Below, one piece after another: positions 2,897-64,000 of a stretch of 64,000 bases of DNA. The DNA comes from Candidatus Latescibacterota bacterium (lineage in GTDB: Bacteria; Latescibacterota; UBA2968; UBA8231): NCBI GenBank assembly GCA_965203355.1, contig OZ241889.1:3488001-3552000 (forward strand). Reading direction: 5' to 3'. Every line of letters starts with the position of its first letter. Within the stretch, counting starts at the first letter, position 1. Position numbers and translations under genes: made by a program. The notes beneath the pieces are model-generated. The model saw only the letters and a list, made by a program, of their open reading frames with translations, was not told where the DNA came from and searched no databases.

Positions 2897-3178
2897 ATGA
2901 ACGAACCGATTACTCAAGCCCAAGATCACGACCGCCGCTTTGGATGGCTGGAAGGGATCGCCGAGCAATTCACGCACCGCTTGGACCGCCTAGAGCGAGC
3001 CATAGAGACGCAAGGTCGCGAGCTGCGGCAAGCCATCGAAGAGCAAGGCCGCCAGACCGCCGCCCGCATGGAGGCGCTGCGGCAAGAACACCGCCGTGAC
3101 TTTCGCTGGCTGGTCGGTATTCAGCTAACGACCTTGATCGCCCTCGGCACGCTCATTTTGTCGCGCTTGCCGGGGTAG
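2897..3178 (+). CDS. Short paralogue of 2427..2879 (coiled coil + C-terminal TM)
   Basis: Identical first 14 aa (MNEPITQAQDHDRR) and last 13 aa (ALGTLILSRLPG*) with a different middle. Confidence 0.78.
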   Translation: MNEPITQAQDHDRRFGWLEGIAEQFTHRLDRLERAIETQGRELRQAIEEQGRQTAARMEALRQEHRRDFRWLVGIQLTTLIALGTLILSRLPG

Positions 3179-3269
3179 GGGCGTGCTATGAGACGCCAAA
3201 AGCTAGCGTACATTTGAGGCCGCCCGCTAAGCATGGATTGACGCGCCGGCCGAAGGGCTGCTGTATGAT

Positions 3270-3362
3270 AGTGGTCAGTGGTCAGTGGTCAGTGGTCAGT
3301 CCCATCCGCTCGTAGGGTGTGGTGCGGCGACTGGTCACTGGCCACCGGCCACCGGCCACTGA
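3270..3362. repeat. Heptamer-armed inverted-repeat element, (AGTGGTC)4 - core - (GGYCACY)4
   Basis: Tandem heptamers on the left, imperfect reverse complements on the right; same family as 49593-49740. Confidence 0.88.
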
Positions 3363-3421
3363 TTGATCAGTTCACGCACCAATTATCAGTCGGCTCGTCC
3401 CCGTATTCCGAAACCATGAAA

Positions 3422-6301
<2,880 letters not shown>

Positions 6302-8059: not shown

Positions 8060-11000
8060 ATGGCGATTTCAAATCACGAACGAGTCGGAAAAGCACTCGA
8101 ACTGCTCAAGACAGGGCTTGGGCCTTTTGTCGAGCGCGAGATCACCGGGGCCATGGAAGCAGGCCGCGTGGATGTCAACAAACTGCGGGACGCGGCCGAG
8201 GACTTGGTGCGGGCGGACAAGCCGATTGTAGAATGGGATGTCGCCGCCTTGTTAAAGCTCATGTGGGAGACGTGGAACGATGTCTTCCGCAAGATTCTCG
8301 GACGCGCCGAGCGCAGCTTGGTCAGCGAACTCCGGGCGTGTCGCAACCAGTGGGCGCATCAGGAGCGCTTTTCGAGCGACGACGCCTACCGCACCCTCGA
8401 CTCGGTCGGACGGCTATTGGCGGCCGTGTCGGCGCCGCAGGCGGACGAGCTAGAGCGGCTCAAGATGGAATTGCTTCGGGTCCGGTTTGACGAGCAGGTG
8501 CGCGGCGAGCGGCGCAAGCAAGCGGGCACGGCGATCGAGAGCGCGGCCGCCGCGCAGCTAAAGCCGTGGCGGGAGATCGTAACGCCGCACCAGGATGTTG
8601 CGAGCGGGCAATACGAGCAGGCTGAATTCGCGGCTGACCTGTGGCAGGTCCATCTGGGCGAAGGGACGGATGAATACCGCGACCCGGCCGAGTTCTTCCG
8701 GCGCACCTATCTGACCGAAAGCCTGAAGGGGCTGCTGGTCGGGGCCATACACCGGCTGACCGGCAAGGGGGGCGATCCGGTCGTCCAACTCCAGACCAAC
8801 TTCGGCGGCGGCAAAACGCACTCAATGCTGGCGCTCTACCACCTGTTCTCCGGCGCGAATCCCACCGAGCTTGCCAATATAGACGCGATCATGCAGGAAG
8901 CCGCGGCCACCCAGTTGCCCTCAGTGCGGCGCGTTGTGCTGGTGGGCAACAAAATTTCTCCGGGCAATCCCACGACCAAGGAAGATGGCACGGTGGTCCG
9001 CACGCTGTGGGGCGAACTGGCTTGGCAACTGGGCGGGAAGAACGCCTACGCCCAAATCGCGGCCGACGATGAGCAAGCCACCAGTCCTGGCGACGCGCTG
9101 CGTGCGCTGTTCAAGGAGTACGGCCCCTGTCTCATCCTGGTCGATGAGTGGGTTGCCTATGCGCGTCAACTCCACGATCGGAGCGATTTGCCCGCGGGCG
9201 GCTTTGAAACCCAGTTCACCTTTGCCCAAGTGCTGACCGAGTCGGCCAAACTGGCCGGCAACTGCTTGCTGGTGATCAGCTTGCCCGCGTCCGACAGCGG
9301 GGATTCGCCGCACGCGCAGGCCGAAGATGTTGAGGTCGGCGGCCAGCGTGGACGGGAAGCTCTCGACCGCTTGCAAAACGTCGTGGGCCGCCTAGAGTCC
9401 TCTTGGCGTCCGGCCAGTGCCGAGGAAGGCTTTGAGATTGTGCGCCGTCGTCTTTTTGAGCCGTTATCGGATCCAGCGCAGTTCAAGGACCGCGACGTAG
9501 TGGCCCGGGCGTTTGCCGAACTGTATCGCACGCAGCACCAAGAATTCCCGCTGGAGTGTCGCGACAGTGCCTACGAGAAGCGGCTCCAGGCCGCGTATCC
9601 GATTCACCCGGAGATCTTCGATCGGCTCTACGCGGATTGGTCGGCTCTGGTGAAGTTTCAGCGCACGCGGGGGGTGCTGCGGCTGATGGCGGCGGTCATT
9701 CACAGCCTCTGGGAAAAAGGCGATCGCAATCCCCTGATCTTGCCGGCCAACATCGCTATCGACGATCCCCGGGTGCAGTTTGAGCTAACCCGCTACCTCC
9801 CGGAAAACTGGGTGCCGGTCATTGATAAGGATGTCGATGGGCCGAGCGCCCTGCCGCGGCAGCTTGACGGCGCAGTACCGAATCTCGGGAAGTTCGCGGC
9901 GTGTCGGCGGGTGGCCCGCGCCATCTACCTCGGGTCGGCACCGACCGCTGCGGCCGCGCATCAGGGGCTTGAAGACCGCCGGGTCAAGCTCGGCTGCGTG
10001 ATGCCGGGTGAGTCGCCCGCCGTGTTCGGCGATGCGCTGCGGCGGCTCGCCGGTACCGCGACCTACCTCTATCAGGATGGGCCGCGGTACTGGTACTCCA
10101 CCCAGCCGACGGTAACGAAGATCGCCGAAGATCGCGCCGAGCAGTTGAAGGACCATCCCGACAAAGTGATGCAGGAGCTCGGAGCGCGGCTCCGCGCCGA
10201 TCTGCGCGATCCGGGCGATTTTAGCCGCGTGCATCCGTTGCCTCAATCCGGGCAGGACGTGCCGGACGATCTCGATGCCCGCCTCGTCGTGCTCGGTATG
10301 GACCATCCGTATGGCAGCGAGGCCAGCAACGCGGCCGAGGTCGCAGCACAAGCCATCTGGGAGTACCGCGGCAACACCCCCCGACTTTTTCGCAACGCGC
10401 TCGTGTTTCTGGCCGCCGATAAGACGCGGTTGCAAGATTTGGATGAAGCGGTGCGCCGCTACTTGGCGTGGGAGTCGATCTTGGCCGACCGCGAGTCGCT
10501 CGATCTGTCGCCCCATCAGGTGAGACAGGCCGAGACGCAACAGGACGCGGCCGCGAGCGCGGTGACGGCCCGAGTGCCGGAGACGTACCAGTGGTTGCTC
10601 GTTCCGGTGCAGGACGCCCCACAGTCCGCGGTTAAGTGGCAGGCCATGCGCCTGTCCGGGCAAGACGCGCTGGCGGTTCGGGCCAGCAAGAAACTGCGCG
10701 GTGACGAGTTGCTGGTGACGGGCTTTGCCGCGACCCGGCTGCGGATGGATATCGACCGGATCCCGCTGTGGCGCGATGACCGGGTATCCGTGAAACAGGT
10801 GGTCGAATATTTTGCGCGGTATTGCTATCTGCCGCGGATCAGCAAACCGCAGGTGCTGCTGAAAGCGATTGAAGACGGCGTCGCCCTGCTGACGTGGGAG
10901 CAGGATGCGTTTGCTTTTGCGGACAGTTACGACGAGGAGGCCGGTCGCTATCGCGGGCTCCGCGGTGGCCAAGTCGTCGCGCTGCCGGACGCGGACGCGC

Positions 11001-11401
11001 TGGGCTGGCTGGTCAAGCCGGATGTTGCGCGCCAGCAGTTGGACGCCGAGCGCCAGGCGGCGGGGCTAGGCCAAGCAGCGGCCCCGGCAGGTGAGACCGG
11101 AACCGAGGGCCGTGTTGCGGAAACCACCGCCGCCGACCAACCAGCGCAACCGCCCAAGGCACCGCCGCCCAAGCGCTTTCACGGCACGGTGGAACTGGAC
11201 GCCACGCGCGTTGGCCGCGACGCAAGCCAGATCGCCGACGAGGTCATCGCACACTTGGCCGGGCTCGTTGGCGCGAAGGTCACCGTGACGCTGGAGATTG
11301 GTGCTGAGATTCCGGCGGGTGCGCCGGACCACGTGGTCCGCACGGTAACGGAGAACGGTCGGACCCTGAAATTCACGAGCCAAGGGTTTGAAAAGGAATG
11401 A
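8060..11401 (+). CDS. DUF499 AAA+ ATPase with N-terminal Swt1-like HEPN domain
   Basis: RNQWAH (RxxxxH) HEPN motif; EFAADL; Walker A QTNFGGGKTH; Walker B ILVDE; YPIHPE and FQRTRGVLRLMA motifs. Confidence 0.92.
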   Translation: MAISNHERVGKALELLKTGLGPFVEREITGAMEAGRVDVNKLRDAAEDLVRADKPIVEWDVAALLKLMWETWNDVFRKILGRAERSLVSELRACRNQWAHQERFSSDDAYRTLDSVGRLLAAVSAPQADELERLKMELLRVRFDEQVRGERRKQAGTAIESAAAAQLKPWREIVTPHQDVASGQYEQAEFAADLWQVHLGEGTDEYRDPAEFFRRTYLTESLKGLLVGAIHRLTGKGGDPVVQLQTNFGGGKTHSMLALYHLFSGANPTELANIDAIMQEAAATQLPSVRRVVLVGNKISPGNPTTKEDGTVVRTLWGELAWQLGGKNAYAQIAADDEQATSPGDALRALFKEYGPCLILVDEWVAYARQLHDRSDLPAGGFETQFTFAQVLTESAKLAGNCLLVISLPASDSGDSPHAQAEDVEVGGQRGREALDRLQNVVGRLESSWRPASAEEGFEIVRRRLFEPLSDPAQFKDRDVVARAFAELYRTQHQEFPLECRDSAYEKRLQAAYPIHPEIFDRLYADWSALVKFQRTRGVLRLMAAVIHSLWEKGDRNPLILPANIAIDDPRVQFELTRYLPENWVPVIDKDVDGPSALPRQLDGAVPNLGKFAACRRVARAIYLGSAPTAAAAHQGLEDRRVKLGCVMPGESPAVFGDALRRLAGTATYLYQDGPRYWYSTQPTVTKIAEDRAEQLKDHPDKVMQELGARLRADLRDPGDFSRVHPLPQSGQDVPDDLDARLVVLGMDHPYGSEASNAAEVAAQAIWEYRGNTPRLFRNALVFLAADKTRLQDLDEAVRRYLAWESILADRESLDLSPHQVRQAETQQDAAASAVTARVPETYQWLLVPVQDAPQSAVKWQAMRLSGQDALAVRASKKLRGDELLVTGFAATRLRMDIDRIPLWRDDRVSVKQVVEYFARYCYLPRISKPQVLLKAIEDGVALLTWEQDAFAFADSYDEEAGRYRGLRGGQVVALPDADALGWLVKPDVARQQLDAERQAAGLGQAAAPAGETGTEGRVAETTAADQPAQPPKAPPPKRFHGTVELDATRVGRDASQIADEVIAHLAGLVGAKVTVTLEIGAEIPAGAPDHVVRTVTENGRTLKFTSQGFEKE

Positions 11402-53266: not shown

Positions 53267-54379
53267 ATGAGATGGGCCCTCTTTCTCGCGGCGGTCCTGT
53301 GGGCGGCTTGGCCGCTCGCGGCCGAAGACCGCCCCGGCCTCGTGCTCGACGGCCAAGCCGCCCGGCTCGTCGTCGATTTAGGCGGCGGCTCCATTGCCGA
53401 CTTCCACCTCAAAAGCAATCCGCTCAATCCCCTGCAATGGGACTCGTGGTCTTTCGGCGAGACCCCGGACCAAGCACCGCCGATAGAGCCGCGCTCCATG
53501 GGGCACTTCCTCTGCCTCGACCGCTGGGGACCGGCCACCGCAGCCGAGCAGGCGCACGGCATGGGTTGGCACGGCGAGGCCACGCGCGTGTGGTGGACCG
53601 TAGATGAAGACGTCCGCGCAGCGGACGGGCACCTCGTGGCCCAAATGTCGGCCAAGCTGCCCTTGGCCGGCCTCGAGGTCTCGCGGTCGATTCGCCTGGC
53701 TCAGGATCGGGCTGTCTTTGCAGTCGCCGAAGCCGTCGCCAATACGCGCCATTTGGGCCGCGTGTACAACATCGTCCAGCACCCGACCATTGGCCCGCCC
53801 TTTTTAGACGAGAGCACTCGCGTCGACGCCAACGGCACACGCGGCTTTATGCAGGAGACGCCCATGCCAACGCCCGAAGACCCAGCGGTGCGCTGGCCTC
53901 ACGCACGCAAAAAGGACGGCACCGAGGTCGATATTCGCTACTTGACGAGCGATGCTTCGCCAGCGGTCGTTTCGTACATAATCGAGGAAAAATACGGCTG
54001 GACCACGGCCATCAACGCCAGCAAAGGGCTGCTGATCGGCTACATCTGGCCGACGGAAGAATATCCTTGGTTCGACGCTTGGCGGCACGTCCGCGACGGC
54101 CAGCCCTTTGCCCGGGGCCTAGAGTTCGGCACGACCGGCCTGCACCAACCCACACCAGTACTCGTGCAAAAAGGCCGCATATTTGGCCGGCAAATTTTGC
54201 GTTTCATCGACGCTGACGAGACCCAAGTTTTCACCTACGCCAACTTTCTCATGGAGATTCCCACCGACTTTGCCGGCGTCGCCGATGTCGAATACGCGGC
54301 CGGCCGGCTCCTAGTGCGCGAGGACGCCGAGCCGGGCCGCGAACTGACGATGGAAGTGGGAGCGCTTTTTGCGTGGTGA
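53267..54379 (+). CDS. Secreted hypothetical protein (galactose mutarotase/aldose epimerase-like fold likely)
   Basis: Signal peptide; GHFLC...HGEA...QHPT.G.PFL...RGLEFG; AAGGAG RBS. Confidence 0.65.
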   Translation: MRWALFLAAVLWAAWPLAAEDRPGLVLDGQAARLVVDLGGGSIADFHLKSNPLNPLQWDSWSFGETPDQAPPIEPRSMGHFLCLDRWGPATAAEQAHGMGWHGEATRVWWTVDEDVRAADGHLVAQMSAKLPLAGLEVSRSIRLAQDRAVFAVAEAVANTRHLGRVYNIVQHPTIGPPFLDESTRVDANGTRGFMQETPMPTPEDPAVRWPHARKKDGTEVDIRYLTSDASPAVVSYIIEEKYGWTTAINASKGLLIGYIWPTEEYPWFDAWRHVRDGQPFARGLEFGTTGLHQPTPVLVQKGRIFGRQILRFIDADETQVFTYANFLMEIPTDFAGVADVEYAAGRLLVREDAEPGRELTMEVGALFAW

Positions 54380-57300
54380 AGTGCGCCCTCCGCCCAGGAC
54401 AGATACTGACCGGCCCGCTGTTTAGCGAGCCGATGCGCGTGGAAACGGTGCGCGCCAACGGCACTGATTATCTGGCGGTCGGCCTGGTCGGCCAACGGTC
54501 CGAGCAATTCCGTCAGGTCGTGCTCTCTCCCGCTGACATTTCCAATTTGACCATTGCCGACCCAGTGCTTTCCTACGACGGCGACGGGCGGCTTTTGCGC
54601 CTCGGCCTCCAAGCTTACGCGCTCGGCATAGCCTACGAGTTCGATCCCTATTTCGGGCTTTCCATCTCGCGCGTCGATCCGCTGCCGCACCAACTCGAAG
54701 CGGTGTACGAGCACCTCCTCAAGCTGCCCAGTGTGCGCTTCTTGCTCGCCGACGACGCCGGCGCGGGCAAGACCATCATGGCCGGGCTCTTGATCCGCGA
54801 GCTCAAGCTCCGGGGTCTCATCGAACGAGTGCTCGTCGTCTGCCCGGCCAACCTGACGTTTCAGTGGCAGCGCGAGCTCAAGGAAAAGTTCGACGAGAAG
54901 TTCCTAGTGATGAAGGGCAGCGATATCCGCGATCAATTCGGGGTTAATCAGTGGCTAGAGCAAAAGCAAATCATCACCTCGCTCGACCTCGCCAAGCGCA
55001 CCGAGATCTTGCCCGGCCTGCAACAGGTGCCTTGGGACCTGGTGATTATTGATGAAGCGCACCGCATGTCGGCGCGGGACGAGACCCACAAGAGCCAGCG
55101 TTACCGACTGGGAGAATTATTGCGCGACTGCGCCGATCACCTGCTGTTACTGACCGCCACGCCCCACCGGGGAGACCCGCAGAACTTCACCCTGTTCCTG
55201 CAACTGCTCGATCGCGATGCGTACGCCGATGTGCGTTCAATCCGCGAGGCCATGGCGCGGCGGCGCGCCCCTTTTTACCTGCGGCGCACCAAAGAAGCCA
55301 TGGTGTATTTCCCCGAGCGTCAGACCGACGGAACATGGGCTGCGAAGCCGGTTTTTACCAAACGCATCCCGCACACCGCCGAGTTCGCTATTGAAGGGGC
55401 TGAGTTCTCGCTGTACCAAAATGTCACGCGGTTTGTGAAACGGCAGAGTGCCCGCGCCGCCGCACAAGGCGACGACCCGCGCGCCCGAGCCGTTGGTTTC
55501 CTGATGTCGCTGTACCAGCGGCGGCTCGCCTCCAGCACCTACGCCATGCGGCGGTCGCTCGAAAATCGCGCCCGGCGGCTGGAGGATGGTCTCAAGCGCG
55601 CCGAGGAGTTGGCGAGGACCGCACCGCCAGACCTTTCCGATTTAGCAGAGTTGGAGGAATTGGAAGATGCCGAGCGCGAGCGTCTAGAGGCCATGCTAGA
55701 GGCCATTACGCTGGCCGGCAACGCCGCGCAGATCCGCGCCGAGATCCGCGAACTTCGCCAGTTTGCCCAAGAAGCTAAAGCCGTCGAAGACTCAGGCTGC
55801 GAGGCAAAGCTCGGACATCTGCGGAAGATCATGCGGGAGGAAGGGTTTTTCGACCGGCCCGATCAGCAACTGCTGCTCTTCACCGAATTCAAGGACACCC
55901 TCAACTACCTGATGGAGCACCTGCAAGCCTGGGGCTTCCGCGTCGGCTGCATCCACGGCGGCATGACGCCTGGCTCACGCCGCGAACCGGGCAGCCGGCT
56001 CTACACCGAACAGCAGTTCCGCGAAGGTGCCATCCAGATTTTAGTGGCCACCGAAGCGGCTGGGGAAGGCATCAATCTTCAGTGCTGCCACATCCTCTTC
56101 AACTACGACATTCCTTGGAACCCGAACCGGCTCGAACAGCGCATGGGCCGCATCCACCGCTATGGCCAGCGACGCGATTGCCTAATTTTCAACTTCGTAG
56201 CGACCAACACTATCGAGGGGCAGGTGCTCCAGCGCTTGTTGGACAAGTTGCAAGAAATTCGCGACGCCCTCGACGACGACGCCGTGTTCAACGTGATCGG
56301 CGAAGTCTTACCGTCGGTCCGCGTCGAGGGCGTACTGCGGGACTACTACGCCGGGCGGTTGGGGGACTCTGACCTTGAAGAGCGGCTCTTGCAAGACGTG
56401 GATGAAGGCCGCTTCCGCGACATCTGCCAGACGGCGTTGGAAGGGTTGGCCTCTAAGAAGATCAACCTCGACATGCTCGTCGAGCGCCGGGCCAAGGCCC
56501 AAGAGCGGCGCGTCGTACCCGAGACCATTGCGCGGTTCATCGCCGAGTGCGCCCAACACGCGGCCCTAACGCTGAAGCCGGTACACCACTTGGCGCACAC
56601 CTTCGATCCGGGGCGCACCCCGTCCAAGTTGAAGGAATACGAGCGCGAGTCGGACTGGAGGCTCTCGGAACTGGCGATGCGTTATCCACGCTTGTCAACG
56701 GACCGCGACACCGCCGAACAACACAACCTCGAATGGGTGACCCCAGGGCACCCCCTGTTTGAGGCCCTGCGCCGGCACAGTCGCCAGCTCGGCCAAGAGG
56801 CCTTTGCCAAGGGGGCCTGTTTCCATTCCCTCGCACACACCGCACCGGCGCGCCTCGACTTCTACCGGGCGCAGGTCGTCGATGGTCTCGGCCAGGTGAT
56901 TCACGAACGGTTGTTCACCGTGGAGTTGACCGATGAAGGCGCACCCAGCCTCCGCGAGCCGGATGTCCTCGGCAATCTCAGTCCGGCTCCTGCTCCGGGC
57001 GATCTCCCGCCCGTAGCGGCTCTCCCAGAGGCGACCGCTTGGCTCCGCGAAAACGCCTTGGCACCCTTTATCAACGAAGTGCGCACCGAGCGTCTGGCCG
57101 AAGTCGAGCGCATTGCCAAGCACGTCGAACTGTCCTTGACCGAGGTCATACAGCGGGCCGACGAGGAGATTGGCCGCGCCGAAGAAGAGCCGCGTAATAA
57201 CGCAATCGGTGCTGAGGGCCGTTTGGCGCAGGCCGAAGCCCGCCATGCTGAGGTAATGGCCCGCCGCGACCGTCGGCGTGAAGAGTTTGAGCGGCAGCGG

Positions 57301-57795
57301 GCCCTGACCTTACAGAGAGTCGAGCGGCTCGCCAGCGTCTTGATCCTGCCTCACCCCGAGCGCGACACCCTCGATGTCCGGCGCTTGCGTCCCCATCCCG
57401 AAACCGAGATGACGGCCATGCGGGTGGTCGTGGAGTACGAGACCGCGCAGGGCCGTCAGGTCGAAGACGTCCACGAGAAAAATCTTGGCTACGATATAAC
57501 CAGCCTCGATCCAGCGTCCGGCGCGTTGCGTCTGATCGAGATAAAAGGACTCGCCGCCGCCACCGGCAGCATTCTGCTGACGCCCAACGAGCGGCGCGTC
57601 GCCGAAGATCGCCGCGATTGCTACTGGCTCTACGTGGTCACCCACTGCGCCAGCACCCCGGAGCTTCAGGAGCCGATCAAAGATCCAGCCCGGTTTCCGT
57701 GGCGCGAATTCACCAAAGTGGAGCACTACTATCTGAGCGTTGACACGCTCAAACAGCCGATGGAAATTCGGGAAGACGAAGGGCATTACCGATGA
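54373..57795 (+). CDS. SNF2-family helicase with C-terminal DUF3883 nuclease domain
   Basis: PLPHQ, LLADDAGAGKT, DEAH, LTATPH, EGINLQ, EQRMGRIHRYGQ, LGYDITS...IEIKG; start GTG 54373 or 54376. Confidence 0.93.
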   Translation: MVKCALRPGQILTGPLFSEPMRVETVRANGTDYLAVGLVGQRSEQFRQVVLSPADISNLTIADPVLSYDGDGRLLRLGLQAYALGIAYEFDPYFGLSISRVDPLPHQLEAVYEHLLKLPSVRFLLADDAGAGKTIMAGLLIRELKLRGLIERVLVVCPANLTFQWQRELKEKFDEKFLVMKGSDIRDQFGVNQWLEQKQIITSLDLAKRTEILPGLQQVPWDLVIIDEAHRMSARDETHKSQRYRLGELLRDCADHLLLLTATPHRGDPQNFTLFLQLLDRDAYADVRSIREAMARRRAPFYLRRTKEAMVYFPERQTDGTWAAKPVFTKRIPHTAEFAIEGAEFSLYQNVTRFVKRQSARAAAQGDDPRARAVGFLMSLYQRRLASSTYAMRRSLENRARRLEDGLKRAEELARTAPPDLSDLAELEELEDAERERLEAMLEAITLAGNAAQIRAEIRELRQFAQEAKAVEDSGCEAKLGHLRKIMREEGFFDRPDQQLLLFTEFKDTLNYLMEHLQAWGFRVGCIHGGMTPGSRREPGSRLYTEQQFREGAIQILVATEAAGEGINLQCCHILFNYDIPWNPNRLEQRMGRIHRYGQRRDCLIFNFVATNTIEGQVLQRLLDKLQEIRDALDDDAVFNVIGEVLPSVRVEGVLRDYYAGRLGDSDLEERLLQDVDEGRFRDICQTALEGLASKKINLDMLVERRAKAQERRVVPETIARFIAECAQHAALTLKPVHHLAHTFDPGRTPSKLKEYERESDWRLSELAMRYPRLSTDRDTAEQHNLEWVTPGHPLFEALRRHSRQLGQEAFAKGACFHSLAHTAPARLDFYRAQVVDGLGQVIHERLFTVELTDEGAPSLREPDVLGNLSPAPAPGDLPPVAALPEATAWLRENALAPFINEVRTERLAEVERIAKHVELSLTEVIQRADEEIGRAEEEPRNNAIGAEGRLAQAEARHAEVMARRDRRREEFERQRALTLQRVERLASVLILPHPERDTLDVRRLRPHPETEMTAMRVVVEYETAQGRQVEDVHEKNLGYDITSLDPASGALRLIEIKGLAAATGSILLTPNERRVAEDRRDCYWLYVVTHCASTPELQEPIKDPARFPWREFTKVEHYYLSVDTLKQPMEIREDEGHYR

Positions 57796-58172
57796 GCGAA
57801 AAGATCAAGCATCTCGAGTTCATTCAAGGCGTGGTCAATCGTCTTGGCACCAACTCGTTCCGTATCAAGGGGTGGGCCGTCATACTCGTGTCGGCACTTC
57901 TCGCTCTGATCGTCCGGGAAGATCGGCCCGATCTCGCTTGGATCGGACTCGTCCCGGTGTTCGTTTTCTGGGGGCTCGACAGCTATTTCCTGTGGCAGGA
58001 GCGGTTATTTCGCGACCTTTATGATCACATCCGCTTGCAAGAAAACCGTGTAGATTTTTCGATGGATACCTCGGCGTTTCGCCGATCTTGGCTTGGCGCG
58101 GTATTTTCGAGGACGCTACTTCCGTTTTACGGTGCATTGGCCGTAGCGGTCGCTATAGCCCTGTTTCTCTGA
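57792..58172 (+). CDS. Small 3-TM membrane protein, probable effector partner of the TIR protein
   Basis: KHLEFIQGVVNRLGTNSFRIKGW, WGLDSYFLWQERLFRDLY; three hydrophobic segments; ATGA-coupled to the helicase. Confidence 0.75.
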   Translation: MSEKIKHLEFIQGVVNRLGTNSFRIKGWAVILVSALLALIVREDRPDLAWIGLVPVFVFWGLDSYFLWQERLFRDLYDHIRLQENRVDFSMDTSAFRRSWLGAVFSRTLLPFYGALAVAVAIALFL

Positions 58173-58199
58173 TAACCCGCCAAAAAGGAGTATGAGCAG

Positions 58200-58697
58200 A
58201 TGAAACGCAGAGTGTTTTACAGTTTTCACTACGATCAAGATAGTTGGCGAGCCGCTCAGGTACGCAACATCGGGGCGATTGAAGGAAATGAACCTGCTAG
58301 CGACAATGACTGGGAGGCAATCAAAAAGGGTGGGGATGAGGCAATCAAAAAATGGATCGCCGGACAGATGCAGGGCCGCACCTGCTGCGTTGTGCTGGTT
58401 GGTTCGAATACCGCCAATCGTAAGTGGATCAACCACGAGATCATCGAGGCATGGAACAAGGACATGGGTGTCGTCGGGATACACGTTCACGGCCTGAAGG
58501 ACAGCGATGGACACACATCATCAAAGGGCAAAAATCCATTCGACTTCATTACCTTGGGAAAGCAAGGTGAAAAGTTGTCATCCGTCGTGAGGTGTTATGA
58601 TCCATTGGGCAAGAACAGTCGCGAATGTTATGACTGGATCGCCAGGAACCTCGCGAACGAGGTGGAGGAAGCCATTCGGATTCGGAATGCACGATAA
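58200..58697 (+). CDS. TIR-domain protein (ThsB/DUF1863 MTH538-like)
   Basis: RRVFYSFHY..D.WRA.QVRN, TANRKWINHEI (catalytic Glu), GVVGIH. Confidence 0.9.
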   Translation: MKRRVFYSFHYDQDSWRAAQVRNIGAIEGNEPASDNDWEAIKKGGDEAIKKWIAGQMQGRTCCVVLVGSNTANRKWINHEIIEAWNKDMGVVGIHVHGLKDSDGHTSSKGKNPFDFITLGKQGEKLSSVVRCYDPLGKNSRECYDWIARNLANEVEEAIRIRNAR

Positions 58698-58730
58698 CTT
58701 TTCAGTCCTGTTTTCTGATGAGATGAGCCG

Positions 58731-58855
58731 ATGCCCCCCGCAACTGCAAGCGTCTGGCGGAAGTGGATTTTCCGATCGTGGTGCTGTCGCGGTACGCGAC
58801 GCGGGAAAAGTCGATTCGGCCCCCCCTCGACGCTTCGTATGTGGTGGCGCGGCGA
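58731..58855 (+). pseudogene. Decayed duplicate of the 5' end of the second DUF1156 methyltransferase
   Basis: Reads [37 protein letters not shown] versus [39 protein letters not shown] at 59706-59837; its ATG is out of frame. Confidence 0.87.
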
Positions 58856-58858
58856 TTC

Positions 58859-58887
58859 TTGACAGCATGTTTTGCTATCATTAGGCT
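58859..58887 (+). promoter_or_regulatory. Promoter TTGACA-N17-TAGGCT with overlapping operator palindrome TGACAGCA-N5-TGCTATCA
   Basis: Direct reading; the 7/8 inverted repeat overlaps the -35 and spacer upstream of the antitoxin. Confidence 0.68.
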
Positions 58888-58917
58888 CTTTCGCCTCAAA
58901 CCGATAAGGAGGCTGCG

Positions 58918-59175
58918 ATGAGTTCCACTGTCACTGTCCGCGATATTGACCCAGCAGACAAAGCCTGGCTCAAACGAGAAGCGCGCCAAGTCGGCGTGTC
59001 AATGGAAGAGTTTATCCGCCGTCTGATCCGCGAGAAGCGTGCCAAGGCCGATCACCGCACAACACCTTCCGAAGTTTTCAAGCGGTATTTTGGCCCCGAA
59101 CATGGCGTCGATCTGCCGGAGTCTGGGCACTATGTCTACCGAAAGGTCGAGTTCGCTGGTCAGAGTGAGGCATGA
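58918..59175 (+). CDS. FitA/VapB-like ribbon-helix-helix antitoxin
   Basis: TVTVRDID...WLKREA...SMEEFIRRLI; AAGGAGG RBS; ATGA overlap with the PIN toxin. Confidence 0.82.
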   Translation: MSSTVTVRDIDPADKAWLKREARQVGVSMEEFIRRLIREKRAKADHRTTPSEVFKRYFGPEHGVDLPESGHYVYRKVEFAGQSEA

Positions 59176-59615
59176 ACGCTCCTGTTGCGTGGCTCCTCGA
59201 TACGAATGTCATCTCGGAGATGATGCGCCCGCATCCAGAACCGCGTGTCGCTGCGTTTCTGGATAAGATCGCTGACCAAGGAATTGGCCTTGCATCCATT
59301 ACTGTCTGGGAAATTCTCAACGGCATTGGCCTCCTCAATGTCGGACGGAGACGTGACACCCTCGCCGAGCGGTTTCAGAACCTTCTCGACGATCTCTTTG
59401 AGGAACGGATATTCGATTGGACTTTGGACGACGCTCGAGAATGCGCCCGCATCATGGAAGCGAAGCGGCGGCGGGGCGAGGCACTCGCAGACCACCTGCC
59501 GGACGCCTTTCTCGCGGCAACGGCGATCCGACGCAGCCTCACCATCGTCACCCGAAATACAAGTGAGTTCCGCAATACAGGCGTTGAAGTTGTCAACCCT
59601 TGGGCTGATGGGTGA
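59172..59615 (+). CDS. vapC: VapC/FitB PIN-domain toxin
   Basis: LLDTNVISE, ITVWEI, DAFLAATA, IVTRN..EF...VNPW. Confidence 0.92.
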   Translation: MNAPVAWLLDTNVISEMMRPHPEPRVAAFLDKIADQGIGLASITVWEILNGIGLLNVGRRRDTLAERFQNLLDDLFEERIFDWTLDDARECARIMEAKRRRGEALADHLPDAFLAATAIRRSLTIVTRNTSEFRNTGVEVVNPWADG

Positions 59616-59705
59616 CAGGCGGTTCCACTGGCGGCGTTGCTTGGTGATCAGCCGAACGAATTTTTCAAGCACCATCCTGCCTCGGCAGAAACAGAAAGAG
59701 AATCC

Positions 59706-62700
59706 ATGATCCCCAGAAAATGCAAGCGGCTCGCCGAAGTCGATTTTCCCATCGCCGAGGTGTCGCAGCACGCGGCGCGGGAGAAGTCGATTCGGCACGG
59801 CCATCCCTCAACGCTGCACCTGTGGTGGGCGCGGCGACCGTTGGCTTCGTCGCGGGCGGTGTTGCTGGCATTGCTGCTGCCGGACCCGTGCGACGAGCAC
59901 TGCCCGGCGGGCTTTAAGGAAGCGGCGCGTCAACTGCTTCCTTCGGTCGGCGGCGGGCGGGGCGAGACCGATGAAAAGTTGCGCCAAGGCTTGCTCAAGT
60001 TCATCGCCAATTTCGCCAACTGGGACAATGCGGCGGACCGCACCCATCTCGACGTGAGCCGGGCGTTGGTGAAGGCGGCGCATGGCGAAGATCCGCCGCT
60101 CGTGGTGGACCCGTTTGCGGGCGGCGGCTCAATTCCGTTGGAAGCGTTGCGGCTGGGCTGCGAGGCGTTTGCCAGCGATCTGAATCCGGTGGCGTGTCTG
60201 ATTCTCAAGGTGATGCTGGAGGACATTCCGCGTCATGGGCCGGGGTTGGCCGAGGAGTTGCGGCGGGTCGGCGGCGAGATTAAGCGGCAGGCCGAGCGGG
60301 AATTGGCCGATTTGTATCCGAGCGACCCGGACGGAGCGACGCCGATTGCCTATTTGTGGGCGCGCACGGTGCGCTGCGAAGCGCCCAACTGCGGCGCAGA
60401 AATTCCGCTGATGCGTTCGTTCTGGCTGTGCAAAAAGGCCAAGCGCAAGCGGGCTTTGCGGCATCGCGTCGAGCGGTGCGCGGGCGGGTCGCCGAGCGTC
60501 AAATTTGAGGGGGGGGGGGGGGGTAAATAGTTGTTTTTTAACAACTTATGATAAAAATTCAAAAGAGCCGCCGAGCGTCAAATTTGAGGTGTTCGAGCCA
60601 AAAGCGGACAAGGAGGTGCGCGGCGGCACGGTAGCGCGAGCGCGAGCAACGTGTCTGTGCTGCGGCGCGGTGCTGCCGCCGGAGCGAGTGCGGACGCAAC
60701 TTGCGGCCCAACGGGGCGGCGCGGATGTGATTTTTGACGCGGAAGGGAAGCGGGCGGGCGGGGCGCGAATGACCGCGGTGGTAACGCTCAAGCCGGGGCA
60801 GGCCGGGCGGCACTATCGCTTGCCGAATGATGCGGATTACGCGGCCGTGCAAAAGGCGCAGGCGCGGATAGCGCAGATTTTGGCGGAATGGGAACGGAAC
60901 GGGAAACAGGGGCTTTGCCCGGTGCCGGATGAGCCGTTGCCGCCGATCGGTACTTTGGGCTTCCGTGTGCAACGCTACGGCATGATGGAGTGGGGGGATT
61001 TGTTCACGGCGCGGCAGAAGGTGGCGTTGGGGGTGTTGGGACGAAAAACAGCAGAGCTTAAGCCAAGCATTCATCAGACCCTAACCGCATTGCTCTTAGG
61101 CAGAATGGCGGATGGGAATAATTCACTTACTCGCTGGGAAAGCGGTGCCGAAAACCCTGTAAATCTATTTGCACGTCAAGCCATTCCTGTAGTGTGGGAT
61201 TTCTGTGAGTCATCGCCAAAAAGCAATGCACGGGGAGTTTTCCTGTCGGGTATCACCGCAGCATGTAAGGTCATAGACGCTGGTCGATCCGTGGCGGAGG
61301 GCCAAGTCCAATCCGCCGACGCCATCAACTACCCACTCCCCGATCAAACCACTAGCGTCTGGTTCACCGATCCGCCCTACTACGACGCCATTCCCTATTC
61401 CGATCTCTCCGATTTCTTCCTCGTCTGGCTCAAGCGAACGCTCCCCGATAATCCATTGCTGCACGATCCGTTCGATCCGGATAATCCGCTCTCGCCCAAA
61501 ATAGCCGAGGCCGTCCAAGACGAAGTCAAATGCGATAATGAGGGTCGCCCCAAAGACCGCGAGTGGTTTGAGGAAACCATGGCAAAAGCCTTCGCCGAAG
61601 GTCGCCGCGTCCTGACGGAAGACGGCGTCGGCTCCGTCGTCTTCGCCCACAAAACCACCGAAGGCTGGGAAGCCTTACTCTCCGGCATGATTCGCGGCGG
61701 CTGGACCATCACCGGCTCGTGGCCGATTGCGACCGAAATGGCGTCCCGTCTCCGCGCCCGCGATTCCGCCGCCCTCGCCACCAGCATCCACCTCATCTGC
61801 CGCCCCCGCCCCGCAGACGCTCCCATCGGCGATTGGGCCGATGTCCTGCGCGAACTCCCCGTCCGCGTCGCCGACTGGATCGAACGCTTGCAGAGCGAAG
61901 GCATCCGCGGCGCCGATCTGGTGTTCGCCTGCATCGGCCCGGCCCTCGAAATTTTCAGCCGCTACCGCGCCGTCGAAACCGCCGAAGGCCATATCATCGG
62001 CCTGCCCGATTACTTGGAAAAAGTCTGGGAAGTCGTCGGTCGCGCCGCCCTGCAACAGGTACTCGGCACCGCCGAAGCGCGAGCGCGCAACGGCCTGTCC
62101 GGCGCACTCGAAGAAGACGCCCGCCTGACCGCGCTCTTCCTGTGGACGCTCCAAAGCACCACCCCTGCCGAGCAACAAGCCGACGCCGCCAGCGATGACG
62201 ACGACGCCAAAGTCGCCGCCACCGGATTCGCGCTCCCCTTCGACGTGGTGCGCCGCTTCGCCCAGCCCATGGGCATTGACCTCGACACCTGGACCAACCG
62301 CATCATCGGCCAAGAAAAAGGCGTCGTCCGCCTGCTGCCCGTAACCGAGCGCGCCAAAAAGCTATTCGGCGAAGAAGGCGCTGCTGCCGCCGCCCTCGCC
62401 ATCGAACGCGACCCGCAACCGACGCTCTTCCCCGCCGACGATGCGCCCACACTCGTCCGCGAGCCGAGCGCACATTACAGCGAATCCTCCGACGACCCTC
62501 TCGCCGCAACGCTCGGCGACACCACCCTCGACCGCGTCCACACCGCCATGCTGCTCCAGTCCAGCGGCCACGCCAACGCCCTGCGGACGCTCATCGGTGC
62601 CGAACAAGATCGCGGCCCGGACTTCCTCCGCCTTGCCAACGCCCTATCCGCCCTCTATCCTCAAGGCTGCAACGAAAAACGCCTTCTCGACGCCATGTTG

Positions 62701-62718
62701 CTGGCCGTGCCGAGGTAA
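59706..62718 (+). CDS. Second DUF1156 adenine methyltransferase, out of frame at a G15 tract (phase-OFF state or pseudogene)
   Basis: ORF 59706..60530 ([22 protein letters not shown]) continues in the +1 frame to 62718 (TDPPYYD); G14 would give one 1003-aa protein. Confidence 0.88.
60490..60589 (+). repeat. 21-bp direct repeat (CGCCGAGCGTCAAATTTGAGG at 60490 and 60569) enclosing a G15 tract (60509-60523) and an AT-rich palindrome
   Basis: Direct reading; repeat offset 79 bp; AGTTGTT-TTTT-AACAACT at 60529-60546. Confidence 0.95.
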
Positions 62719-62738: not shown

Positions 62739-64000
62739 ATGAACCAAATCACGCTCAAAAACTTTCGCTGCTTTCGGGAGGAACAGACTGCCCGCTTAGC
62801 ACCGCTGACGCTGCTCGTCGGCGAGAACAGCACCGGCAAAACCTCGTTCATGGCTATGCTCCGAGTACTTTGGGATATGGTCTGTCGAGGGGAATCTCCT
62901 GACTTCAAGGAGGATCCCTACGACCTCGGCAGCTTTGACGAAATAGCACACTTCCGCGGCGGACGGGGCGATCGGGCAACCACTATTGAGGCAGATTTTG
63001 AGATCATTCCTGTACCCAAATCCAAAAAAAATGAACGGTTTCGTTTTGAAGTAACTTTTCAAAAAAAGGGGACCGTACCAGTACCAGTACGAAGACATTT
63101 TTGGCAAGAGGATGTGTGGGTAGAGTTTTCGCAATTGGCTGGCCAATTTGAAGAAAGTGAGATTCGCTTCGGAACCAAAAGGGGCACTTGGAAGCTTGAA
63201 CATACGCATACTACCGAACTTATCAGTAGTCTGACGGGTATGAATTTTCCTCTTTTTTTATCTATTAGCCACTTAATTACAGAAAACTCTCAATGGACCG
63301 CACTGTCAGGCTCGAAACAGCCTATACCTATAGACGAAGACTTTGAACAAATCCATAAAATTTCGTCCTTTCTATTCGAACGCTATCGCTCTTACTCAGA
63401 AAGGCCGTATGCCAGCGCACCGGTCCGCTCCAAACCGCGTCGCACATACGACCCCGCACGACCAACACAGGACCCCGAGGGCAATTACATCCCCATGTAT
63501 CTGTCCAACTTGTATTTTCAAGACAAAAATAAATGGGGAAAACTCAAAGAAGCCCTCGAAGATTTCGGTAAAAACGCAGGGCTTTTTGATGAAATTTCAG
63601 TCAAACCTTTGGGAAAGAAGGAGACAGAGCCTTTTCAAATGCAGGTCCGAAAGTCCGGGAAAAGGATTAAGGGGCCACAGCGGAACTTGATTGACGTAGG
63701 TTATGGGGTAAGCCAAGTACTCCCCGTCGTCACCGAGTTACTGCGTCCCGACGCCCCGTCCATGTTTCTGCTACAGCAACCGGAAGTACATCTCCATCCC
63801 AGCGCCCAAGCCGCGCTGGGTAGCCTGTTCTGTCAAGTCGCCGATCCGCAGCGTCAGTTGGTGGTCGAGACGCACAGCGATCACCTGATCAATCGGGTGC
63901 GGATGGATGTTCGCGATGGCGATGGCAAGCTAAAACCCGAAGACGTTTCCATCCTCTTCTTTGAACGGCGAGACCTCGACGTACACATTCATTCGCTGGA
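62739..64000 (+). CDS. ABC/AAA_21-type ATPase (DUF3696-like), runs off the window end; absent from the ORF track
   Basis: Manual translation: MNQITLKNFRCF...LVGENSTGKTS...NLIDVGYGVSQVLP...LLQQPEVHLHP...VVETHSDH. Confidence 0.88.
   Translation, partial: MNQITLKNFRCFREEQTARLAPLTLLVGENSTGKTSFMAMLRVLWDMVCRGESPDFKEDPYDLGSFDEIAHFRGGRGDRATTIEADFEIIPVPKSKKNERFRFEVTFQKKGTVPVPVRRHFWQEDVWVEFSQLAGQFEESEIRFGTKRGTWKLEHTHTTELISSLTGMNFPLFLSISHLITENSQWTALSGSKQPIPIDEDFEQIHKISSFLFERYRSYSERPYASAPVRSKPRRTYDPARPTQDPEGNYIPMYLSNLYFQDKNKWGKLKEALEDFGKNAGLFDEISVKPLGKKETEPFQMQVRKSGKRIKGPQRNLIDVGYGVSQVLPVVTELLRPDAPSMFLLQQPEVHLHPSAQAALGSLFCQVADPQRQLVVETHSDHLINRVRMDVRDGDGKLKPEDVSILFFERRDLDVHIHSL

Follow-up and report, generated by a model that had tools for sequence, protein, structure and literature searches.

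Results

A truncated end of the methylase gene hmaB precedes vapBC

We analyzed a stretch of 64,000 nucleotides (nt) of contig OZ241889.1 from a Candidatus Latescibacterota bacterium, referred to below as the window, which contains two Hma loci. In PADLOC naming, Hma systems comprise the helicase HmaA, the DUF1156 methylase HmaB and the DUF499 ATPase HmaC; Rakesh & Krishnan (PMC12839542) name them type-1 BREX-related systems. In the second locus, the genes hmaA, PDC-M50A and PDC-M50B are followed by a truncated copy of the hmaB 5' end (58731-58855, here called the stub), a vapBC toxin-antitoxin cassette and the resident hmaB gene. We read the stub, with a probability of roughly 70%, as the scar of an hmaB 5' end that was displaced when a cassette entered by recombination anchored in the core gene together with one illegitimate join, and at which further shuffling took place later. 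We see no function that the stub might serve today; it is a dead relic, the scar of an old displacement.

Local alignment and blastn place positions 58735-58855 on 59711-59837 of the resident gene, where 98 of the 127 aligned columns match (77.2%; E between 3.8e-21 and 4.7e-21), and the ATG of the stub at 58731 falls on the resident ATG at 59706 once a 1-nt deletion is allowed for. Homology to the resident gene ends at the WWARR codons. The 5' 90 nt of the stub are free of indels; four small gaps, with six bases lost, are clustered in the last 35 nt, and because of these small indels no reading frame survives. Over 86 indel-free nt the two copies show 16 differences, divided 4/3/9 over the codon positions, a split that is suggestive of coding-type divergence and, by our own arithmetic, not significant by itself. 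An earlier note on this DNA, made from its letters alone, had described a 125-base remnant of the methylase start that ends at the WWARR codons and is followed by VapBC and then by the full methylase start. Each of these elements was recovered (the DUF1156 start matches PF06634 with E = 1.3e-23; for vapB and vapC see Table 1), and the run of synonymous differences that the note quoted holds as well, RLAEV being encoded by both copies.

The window and most of its relatives are metagenome assemblies, in which two strain variants of a locus may become joined. Such an artefact is scarcely credible here. In two runs of one study, Logan contigs span 57700-59019 without a single difference, so the stub and its junction are real in that set of samples and are not the product of a single assembly. 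Moreover, the junction recurs at 83-93% identity in several independently assembled genomes, and the stub bears indels of its own.

Other Logan contigs also touch this region. Those of run X6 leave 58710-59012 uncovered, a hole that proves nothing. A single contig of run X1, from another study, joins 58684 to 59700, so that hmaB would come after PDC-M50B with no vapBC between them; as its shorter side has just 29 letters, it is a lead only. Runs X3 and X4 show a second vapB-type cassette (window 58840-59019), approximately 91% identical, in the same samples; its homology begins at 58840, thus taking in the last 15 nt of the stub, and the sequence upstream is different.

The junction between stub and vapBC is shared by related loci

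In L004, L007, L089, L090 and L092 (loci other than those of the window are designated by L numbers throughout), the first base of the vapBC cassette is that of the window (58854-58859). L089 matches the stub/vapBC region of the window at 93% over 757 nt and has an intact vapBC, L090 matches at 88%, and L091 aligns from window position 58905. A further-decayed hmaB stub lies directly before the cassette in L004, L007, L089, L090 and L091; in all of these except L091 it is preceded by the 3' end of a Schlafen/AlbA_2 gene, the stop codon of which lies within the GTGA of the stub. L092 has kept the left end of the cassette, but the sequence upstream comprises a Schlafen fragment and another stub, of greater length. 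Fragments of the cassette are present in L009 and L014. The deletions in orthologous copies of the vapBC stub differ between genomes, and only the window has a long copy among the loci sharing the junction. By these alignments, the stub/vapBC junction, which six other genomes carry, goes back to a single old event and was passed on to a group of loci within one phylum. Since the left neighbor differs and the right junction is shared, the upstream cargo was probably exchanged, with a breakpoint in or at the stub.

The left end of the cassette carries an inverted repeat, imperfect in the window and perfect in L007, L089 and L090, which may be a VapB operator. The TTGACA promoter claimed by the earlier note stood in part: the hexamer is present at 58860-58865, but the promoter scan made no call at this site, because the best -10 candidate is weak (3/6 matches). 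The promoter before vapB is thus a putative one, read from its -35 hexamer alone. The vapB and vapC genes overlap by 4 nt (59172-59175), and their products show the ribbon-helix-helix and PIN domains of a VapBC pair.

Core-gene stubs recur in Hma loci

We compared each of 80 related loci with itself by blastn, without an hmaB query, and counted downstream repeat copies starting no more than 3 nt from the hmaB start. Start-anchored extra hmaB copies, located upstream of cargo, were found in 16/80 loci (13/80 by tblastn). They are truncated stubs in 14 loci (L003, L004, L007, L011, L018, L020, L022, L023, L033, L049, L053, L057, L066 and L071), a near-full pseudocopy in L072 and a second full copy in L073. 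The count of 16 is a lower bound, because part of the contigs are short and the tally excludes very short stubs that were noticed by eye (e.g. L011 near 4083-4110).

The family of the first Hma locus, whose HmaB shares 34% protein identity with that of the second, has start-anchored stubs in 4 of 20 further loci. The window itself carries one: 2098-2238 plus 2239-2314 correspond to 3367-3765, with an internal deletion of 179 nt. Because homology resumes after this deletion, the end of the stub lies further on than first appears. This copy includes approximately 50 nt of 5' leader and runs past the deletion to about hmaB nt 350. Short tandem repeats of 7 and 6 bases, located at 3270-3360 directly before the hmaB leader of locus 1, are not in the stub copy. 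A promoter or stub common to locus 1 (~1164-1180) and locus 2 (58855-58870) was considered and rejected, the match being one of 16 nt only, which 2/500 shuffles reach; the region 1055-1270 has no significant similarity to either hmaB 5' end.

Core genes have left stubs at their other ends, too. Between hmaB and hmaC, 8/69 loci (L001, L002, L003, L007, L011, L017, L022 and L065; e.g. L007 13621-13756) have a stub of the hmaB 3' end that follows cargo and reaches the last residue, and hmaA 3' stubs were found in L002, L046 and L049. No hmaB stubs were found directly before the hmaA 3' stubs in these three loci. In L001 and L011 the hmaB 3' stub precedes a homologue of the NsnB-like gene of the window. 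The idea that the L007 3' stub is nearer to the window allele than to its own resident was ruled out (92.6% versus 94.9% nucleotide identity).

The end points of the hmaB 5' stubs span from about nt 26 to nt 589 of the gene. Three or four independent ends fall at nt 121-132 (the window, L004 at 8849-8980, L011 and perhaps L049), so that WWARR is a mild hot spot at most and not a general end point. When the first 810 nt of hmaB are divided into 45-nt windows, the WWARR region is in one of the three that are best conserved. Third-position identity along the gene is nearly uniform (0.41-0.64), and the value for nt 91-135, 0.64, is equaled by two other windows. The hmaB 5' end as an over-conserved DNA docking site was rejected, over-conservation not being seen.

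The earlier note had seen the same architecture in both loci of the window, and had held that its reading would fail if other DUF1156 loci lacked such scars; the opposite was found. With 16/80 related loci, 14 of them truncated, and 4/20 in the distant family, the stub architecture is a general feature of Hma loci.

The stubs of these loci also bear on whether such fragments are kept for a function, either as bridging ORFs (open reading frames) that provide the upstream gene with a stop codon and couple translation, or as a regulatory leader of vapBC. In 16 of 18 stubs the sequence starts with (A/G)TGA, and in at least ten the preceding cargo ORF terminates at this TGA, which means that the cargo gene and the hmaB start physically overlap; in L003, L007, L018 and L023 the stub ORF ends on or beside the start codon of the next gene. 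The window stub does not conform to this scheme. It starts with ATGC, and PDC-M50B terminates 33 nt before it at a separate stop codon. The frame of the stub is broken, the surviving 43-codon ORF being out of the homologous frame and ending 55 nt before vapB. Together with the different deletions in orthologous copies, this makes retention for a function quite improbable.

Likely origin of the stub from another hmaB allele

Collinearity with the window extends, in L010 and L056, from hmaA via PDC-M50A/B and the following spacer into an hmaB gene that is intact there (4499 nt at 71.6% identity, ending at 58854, and 4299 nt at 71.0%, ending at 58847, respectively). The stub is thus the start of an hmaB gene natively placed after PDC-M50B. 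Its first 90 nt share synonymous variants with L010, and both PDC-M50-linked alleles, L010 and L056, share variants with the stub. Over the clean 86 nt, identity between the stub and its own resident is 81%, and the median identity between alleles is 79%: the stub is as distant from its own resident as two unrelated alleles are from each other. The closest of 81 resident alleles is that of L007 (74/86); the resident of the window ranks third (70/86). The replacement of methylase specificity that the earlier note suggested is a conjecture: the part of the displaced gene that is visible in the window is the hmaB 5' end only, and the old target-recognition region is gone.

The differences between 13 longer stubs and their resident genes were pooled. 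They are distributed 88/57/184 over the codon positions (chi-square approximately 80, by our own arithmetic), from which we infer that much of the divergence arose under selection for coding.

The earlier note had proposed a search for intact genes nearer to the remnant than to the resident allele. Looking for an intact allele closer to the stub than its resident yielded no convincing case among the 81 alleles, and a metagenome scan with PDC-M50B was aimed at a close allele from before the insertion. The best of 80 metagenome loci reached 72% protein identity, and no close 'before' state was seen. Matches to the HmaB N-terminus by tblastn were 0/80 in these loci, a count taken from an empty output after which the script stopped on an error.

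Proposed cassette entry anchored in hmaB

Between hmaA and hmaB, the 14 loci with truncated stubs carry 71 cargo ORFs, the majority of which belong to known defence systems or are candidates for defence (Schlafen/AlbA_2, PDC-S02, Ppl-like and HEC-01 ABC ATPases, HEC-05/GmrSD, SIR2-HerA, AbiU-like, TIR effectors and MNT-HEPN). No integrase was found among the 71 ORFs, nor among the scanned proteins of the window (locus 1, and locus 2 from 53267), and mobility genes of the cargo are limited to a single insertion sequence (IS) transposase, present as two ORFs in L003. These counts speak against site-specific capture, in which an integron- or phage-like recombinase would insert cassettes at a defined site in the DUF1156 codons, each cassette bringing a surrogate gene start. 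Phage 21, which integrates into icd, is an example of such capture. Several independent junctions near nt 121-132, right after the WWARR codons, and the growth of arrays beside an intact gene, as in integrons, would agree with it, yet the wide scatter of stub ends and the mirror-image stubs at the hmaB 3' and hmaA 3' ends would not, and no repeat common to cassette ends is visible in the alignments. We therefore consider site-specific capture very unlikely.

The position of the junction within hmaB is kept for each cassette: nt 132 for vapBC, nt 174 for MNT-HEPN (L003, L004, L007), near nt 30 for PDC-S02 (L003, L007) and nt 391 for KTSC-type cargo (L007, L033). Between related genomes the arrays differ by units that run from stub to stub, with breakpoints inside stubs: in the alignment, L003 equals L007 minus the segment between two stubs, with the switch inside the stub of 28-33 nt. 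In L022 (6689-7085), an hmaB stub (nt 1-281) passes without a gap into the final 42 codons of an hmaA gene, the two homologies overlapping by up to about 9 nt, and SIR2-HerA and an intact hmaB follow downstream. This join is the footprint expected of a linear donor, consisting of the hmaA 3' end, cargo and hmaB, from another Hma locus.

In the sequence of events that we propose for the window, donor DNA from another Hma locus would have brought the vapBC cassette, its leader and a new hmaB 5' end. On the right side the donor would recombine by homology within hmaB, and its non-homologous left end would join illegitimately inside the old hmaB gene, at the WWARR codons. Such homology-facilitated illegitimate recombination would be the 'displacement' proposed for Rhs tips and for the effector-immunity arrays of type VI secretion systems (T6SS). 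The first 132 nt of the old gene would thereby be stranded upstream and decay, hmaB itself remaining intact. Later the stub would serve as homology, and the cargo upstream would be swapped from a Schlafen-type gene, as in the relatives, to PDC-M50A/B, as in the window; this exchange, with its breakpoint at the stub, is probably why the 5' 90 nt are clean and the last 35 nt decayed. By repetition, Hma loci would stack defence cassettes beside their core genes, each bounded by an hmaB 5', hmaB 3' or hmaA 3' stub.

Several points weigh against the displacement scar as set out here. A circular intermediate made of cargo plus one arm, integrating by a single crossover (Campbell type), gives the same end products as the linear route, and L022 alone hints at the latter. 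All loci with the vapBC junction come from one phylum-level group of metagenome-assembled genomes, and common descent of whole arrays accounts for part of the sharing. Third-position identity along hmaB gives no sign of the 5' end as a dedicated recombination site. Among the 81 alleles, no intact one is convincingly closer to the stub than the resident is. Finally, 7 of the 13 longer stubs are nearest to their own resident gene, a result that in-place duplication, gene conversion or an exchange of near-identical alleles would explain as well as a foreign origin would.

The first of these alternatives, in which the first ~130 nt of hmaB would be copied within the genome by slippage or unequal exchange, the cassette would land between the copies and the upstream copy would decay, could also draw on the near-full and full extra hmaB copies of L072 and L073. 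For the window it is nevertheless unlikely. The stub differs from its resident about as much as random alleles do and shares synonymous variants with the PDC-M50-linked alleles; the same junction occurs in other genomes with different upstream genes; and duplication cannot yield the L022 join of an hmaB stub to an hmaA fragment. The excess of third-position differences in the pooled stubs (184/329) is likewise above what we would estimate, without formal computation, for the decay of one copy. A separate, once-functional allele, as claimed by the earlier note, is accordingly a likely source of the window stub, short of proof: collinearity with L010 and L056 and the pooled codon positions argue for it, and the lack of a clearly closer intact allele and the 7 of 13 stubs nearest to their own resident argue against it.

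Layout of the locus and neighboring features

The features of the second Hma locus are listed in Table 1. The product of 54373-57795 combines an SNF2 helicase with a nuclease-like C-terminus, as is characteristic of HmaA, and that of the resident hmaB is an N6-adenine methylase with an N-terminal DUF1156 (PADLOC model PDLC00661). An hmaC gene of this locus would lie beyond the window, which stops at 64000 within the next cargo gene.

Table 1. Features of the second Hma locus, in window coordinates.
Feature	Position	Strand	Evidence
hmaA, locus 2 (SNF2 helicase, NOV_C nuclease-like C-terminus)	54373..57795	+	PADLOC HmaA PDLC00659 E 1.4e-171; Pfam SNF2-rel_dom, Helicase_C, NOV_C
PDC-M50A, embedded cargo, small protein without Pfam family	57792..58172	+	PADLOC PDC-M50A E 8.2e-45
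PDC-M50B, embedded cargo, ThsB-like TIR protein	58200..58697	+	Pfam ThsB_TIR E 3.6e-27; PADLOC ThsB 3e-70, PDC-M50B 8.1e-65
Native spacer, PDC-M50B to former hmaB start	58698..58730	+	Collinear with spacer before intact hmaB in L010, L056
hmaB 5' stub, pseudogene fragment of hmaB nt 1-132	58731..58855	+	77.2% identity to 59711-59837
vapBC cassette left end (TTGACA 58860-58865, imperfect inverted repeat, Shine-Dalgarno sequence)	58856..58917	+	Left boundary conserved in relatives
vapB, FitA-like ribbon-helix-helix antitoxin	58918..59175	+	Pfam PF22513 E 2.2e-9
vapC, PIN-domain toxin	59172..59615	+	Pfam PF01850 E 1.4e-12; ORF coordinates
vapBC cassette tail	59616..59667	+	Homology to L090, L091 up to 59667; L004/L007 retain 59571/59575-59667/59676
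Leader moving together with resident hmaB allele	59668..59705	+	Resident-gene alignments of L002, L011 begin at 59668
Resident hmaB, DUF1156 N6-adenine methylase	59706..62718	+	PADLOC HmaB 7.1e-51 (N-terminal part), 2.4e-63 (C-terminal part)
NsnB-like ABC ATPase, next embedded cargo gene, cut by window end	62739..64000	+	PADLOC NsnB 3.1e-47

As assembled, the resident hmaB consists of two ORFs (59706-60530 and 60505-62718), owing to a run of 15 G (60509-60523) with an insert of 58 nt at 60509-60568; with one G fewer, the gene is a single ORF of 1003 codons. The interruption consists of the G run and an AT-rich 45 nt with a short hairpin and is flanked by 21-nt direct repeats (60490-60510 and 60569-60589); the insert is not in the hmaB genes of relatives, as judged from the alignments. 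The length of the G run varies between Logan runs: one run has that of the window, two have one G fewer, and a related organism from another study has three fewer. The interruption may be a phase-variable switch of the methylase or a homopolymer sequencing error. To judge by loose contig ends in four runs, at 60509-60512 and at 60542-60551, the core of the insert may occur elsewhere as a repeat. Further on, the central part of hmaB (~61040-61300) aligns among close relatives only with L001, L011 and L014 and is replaced in the others; on these alignments it is probably a variable target-recognition region, hmaB alleles being mosaic.

The first Hma locus comprises hmaB (3278-6301), PDC-M45A/B/C and hmaC (8060-11401; PADLOC HmaC PDLC00662, E 0). 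Its HmaC has an N-terminal Swt1-like HEPN domain (8060-8430; E 5.8e-35), and so matches the HEPN-DUF499 fusion of Rakesh & Krishnan (PMC12839542). Two tandem genes (2427-2879 and ~2898-3179) encode a coiled-coil protein with a hydrophobic C-terminal tail, and the first of them holds 54-nt tandem repeats at 2547-2795.

Discussion

The embedding of genes in Hma, BREX and restriction-modification (RM) operons is an established route to new defences, and how the genes arrive there is unexplained. Payne et al. 2024 (10.1101/2024.01.29.577857) report embedded genes in 931 of 1,485 Hma systems (approximately 63%) and describe embedding in Hma, BREX, DISARM and type I RM. As to its cause they do not decide, but put forward the idea of a 'genomic sink'; loci bearing pseudogenes were filtered out of their set. 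Their main text does not contain the words remnant, truncated or recombination. The portion of Rakesh & Krishnan (PMC12839542) considered here likewise makes no mention of remnants or pseudogenes, and our literature search found no paper describing core-gene stubs in Hma loci. Compared with the account of Payne et al., the stubs offer a mechanism for embedding, one that is concrete and testable: recombination anchored in a core gene, with displacement of the old gene end. The stub architecture points to this as the route by which cassettes are stacked and reshuffled. Furthermore, stubs give the relative order of acquisitions and a simple sequence signature by which cassettes can be delimited in any genome.

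A wider proposal, which we put forward tentatively and at somewhat less than even odds, is that Hma loci are integrase-free cassette arrays. Each cassette would be flanked by a cassette-specific piece of hmaB on its left (nt 132 for vapBC, nt 174 for MNT-HEPN, about nt 30 for PDC-S02) and by an hmaB start on its right, and RecA-type recombination would insert, excise and reshuffle cassettes between distant bacteria, by double crossover or by way of a circle formed at direct repeats. If true, this would explain the embedded genes in the approximately 63% of Hma systems counted by Payne et al. 2024, and stubs would be a genome-wide marker for new defence cassettes and the order of their acquisition.

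Integron arrays resemble Hma loci in that promoter-proximal cassettes grow at one end and are reshuffled between hosts. In contrast to integrons, the 71 cargo ORFs of the Hma loci include no intI-type integrase, and the joints between cassettes are variable-length pieces of a protein-coding gene; no attC-like repeat is visible at the cassette ends in the alignments, to which no dedicated attC model was applied.

Homology-facilitated illegitimate recombination, described for transformation and conjugation, combines one homologous anchor with one illegitimate join, the recipient stretch between them being deleted (PMC3240628). By this process, donor DNA should come to follow a stub of the gene that received it, as seen in L022. 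Experiments have demonstrated it only with selected markers in few species, whereas the Hma case is deduced from comparative anatomy.

The same kind of recombination has been proposed for the T6SS effector-immunity arrays of Vibrio cholerae (Kirchberger et al. 2017, PMC5361080), and it would connect the evolution of defence islands with a process proposed for Rhs, contact-dependent inhibition (CDI) and T6SS arrays. In the orphan arrays of these systems, which include those made by Rhs C-terminal displacement and the CdiA-CT/Rhs orphan modules, as in Hma loci, a conserved gene segment anchors the incoming DNA, the new module adjoins the active gene, and the former end, now a truncated orphan with a piece of conserved sequence, is moved out of the way; repeated events give rise to arrays, the retained pieces permit later homologous exchange, and no integrase takes part. 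Truncated core-gene ends, anchored at native junctions and distal to the active gene, are indeed found in Hma loci, upstream in 16/80 and 4/20 loci and downstream in 8/69. Hma loci differ in several respects. Their conserved genes, hmaA and hmaB, belong to a defence system; what is displaced is not a toxin tip together with an immunity gene but a short end of a gene, of no use by itself; and displacement occurs at the 5' end besides 3' ends. Nor do their variable modules form a toxin tip and immunity gene within the conserved ORF: they are free-standing defence cassettes outside it, arranged as separate operons (for example vapBC, the TIR pair, SIR2-HerA, HEC-01 and Schlafen-type genes). The Hma locus is thus not a member of the displacement-type orphan arrays, but it works like one.

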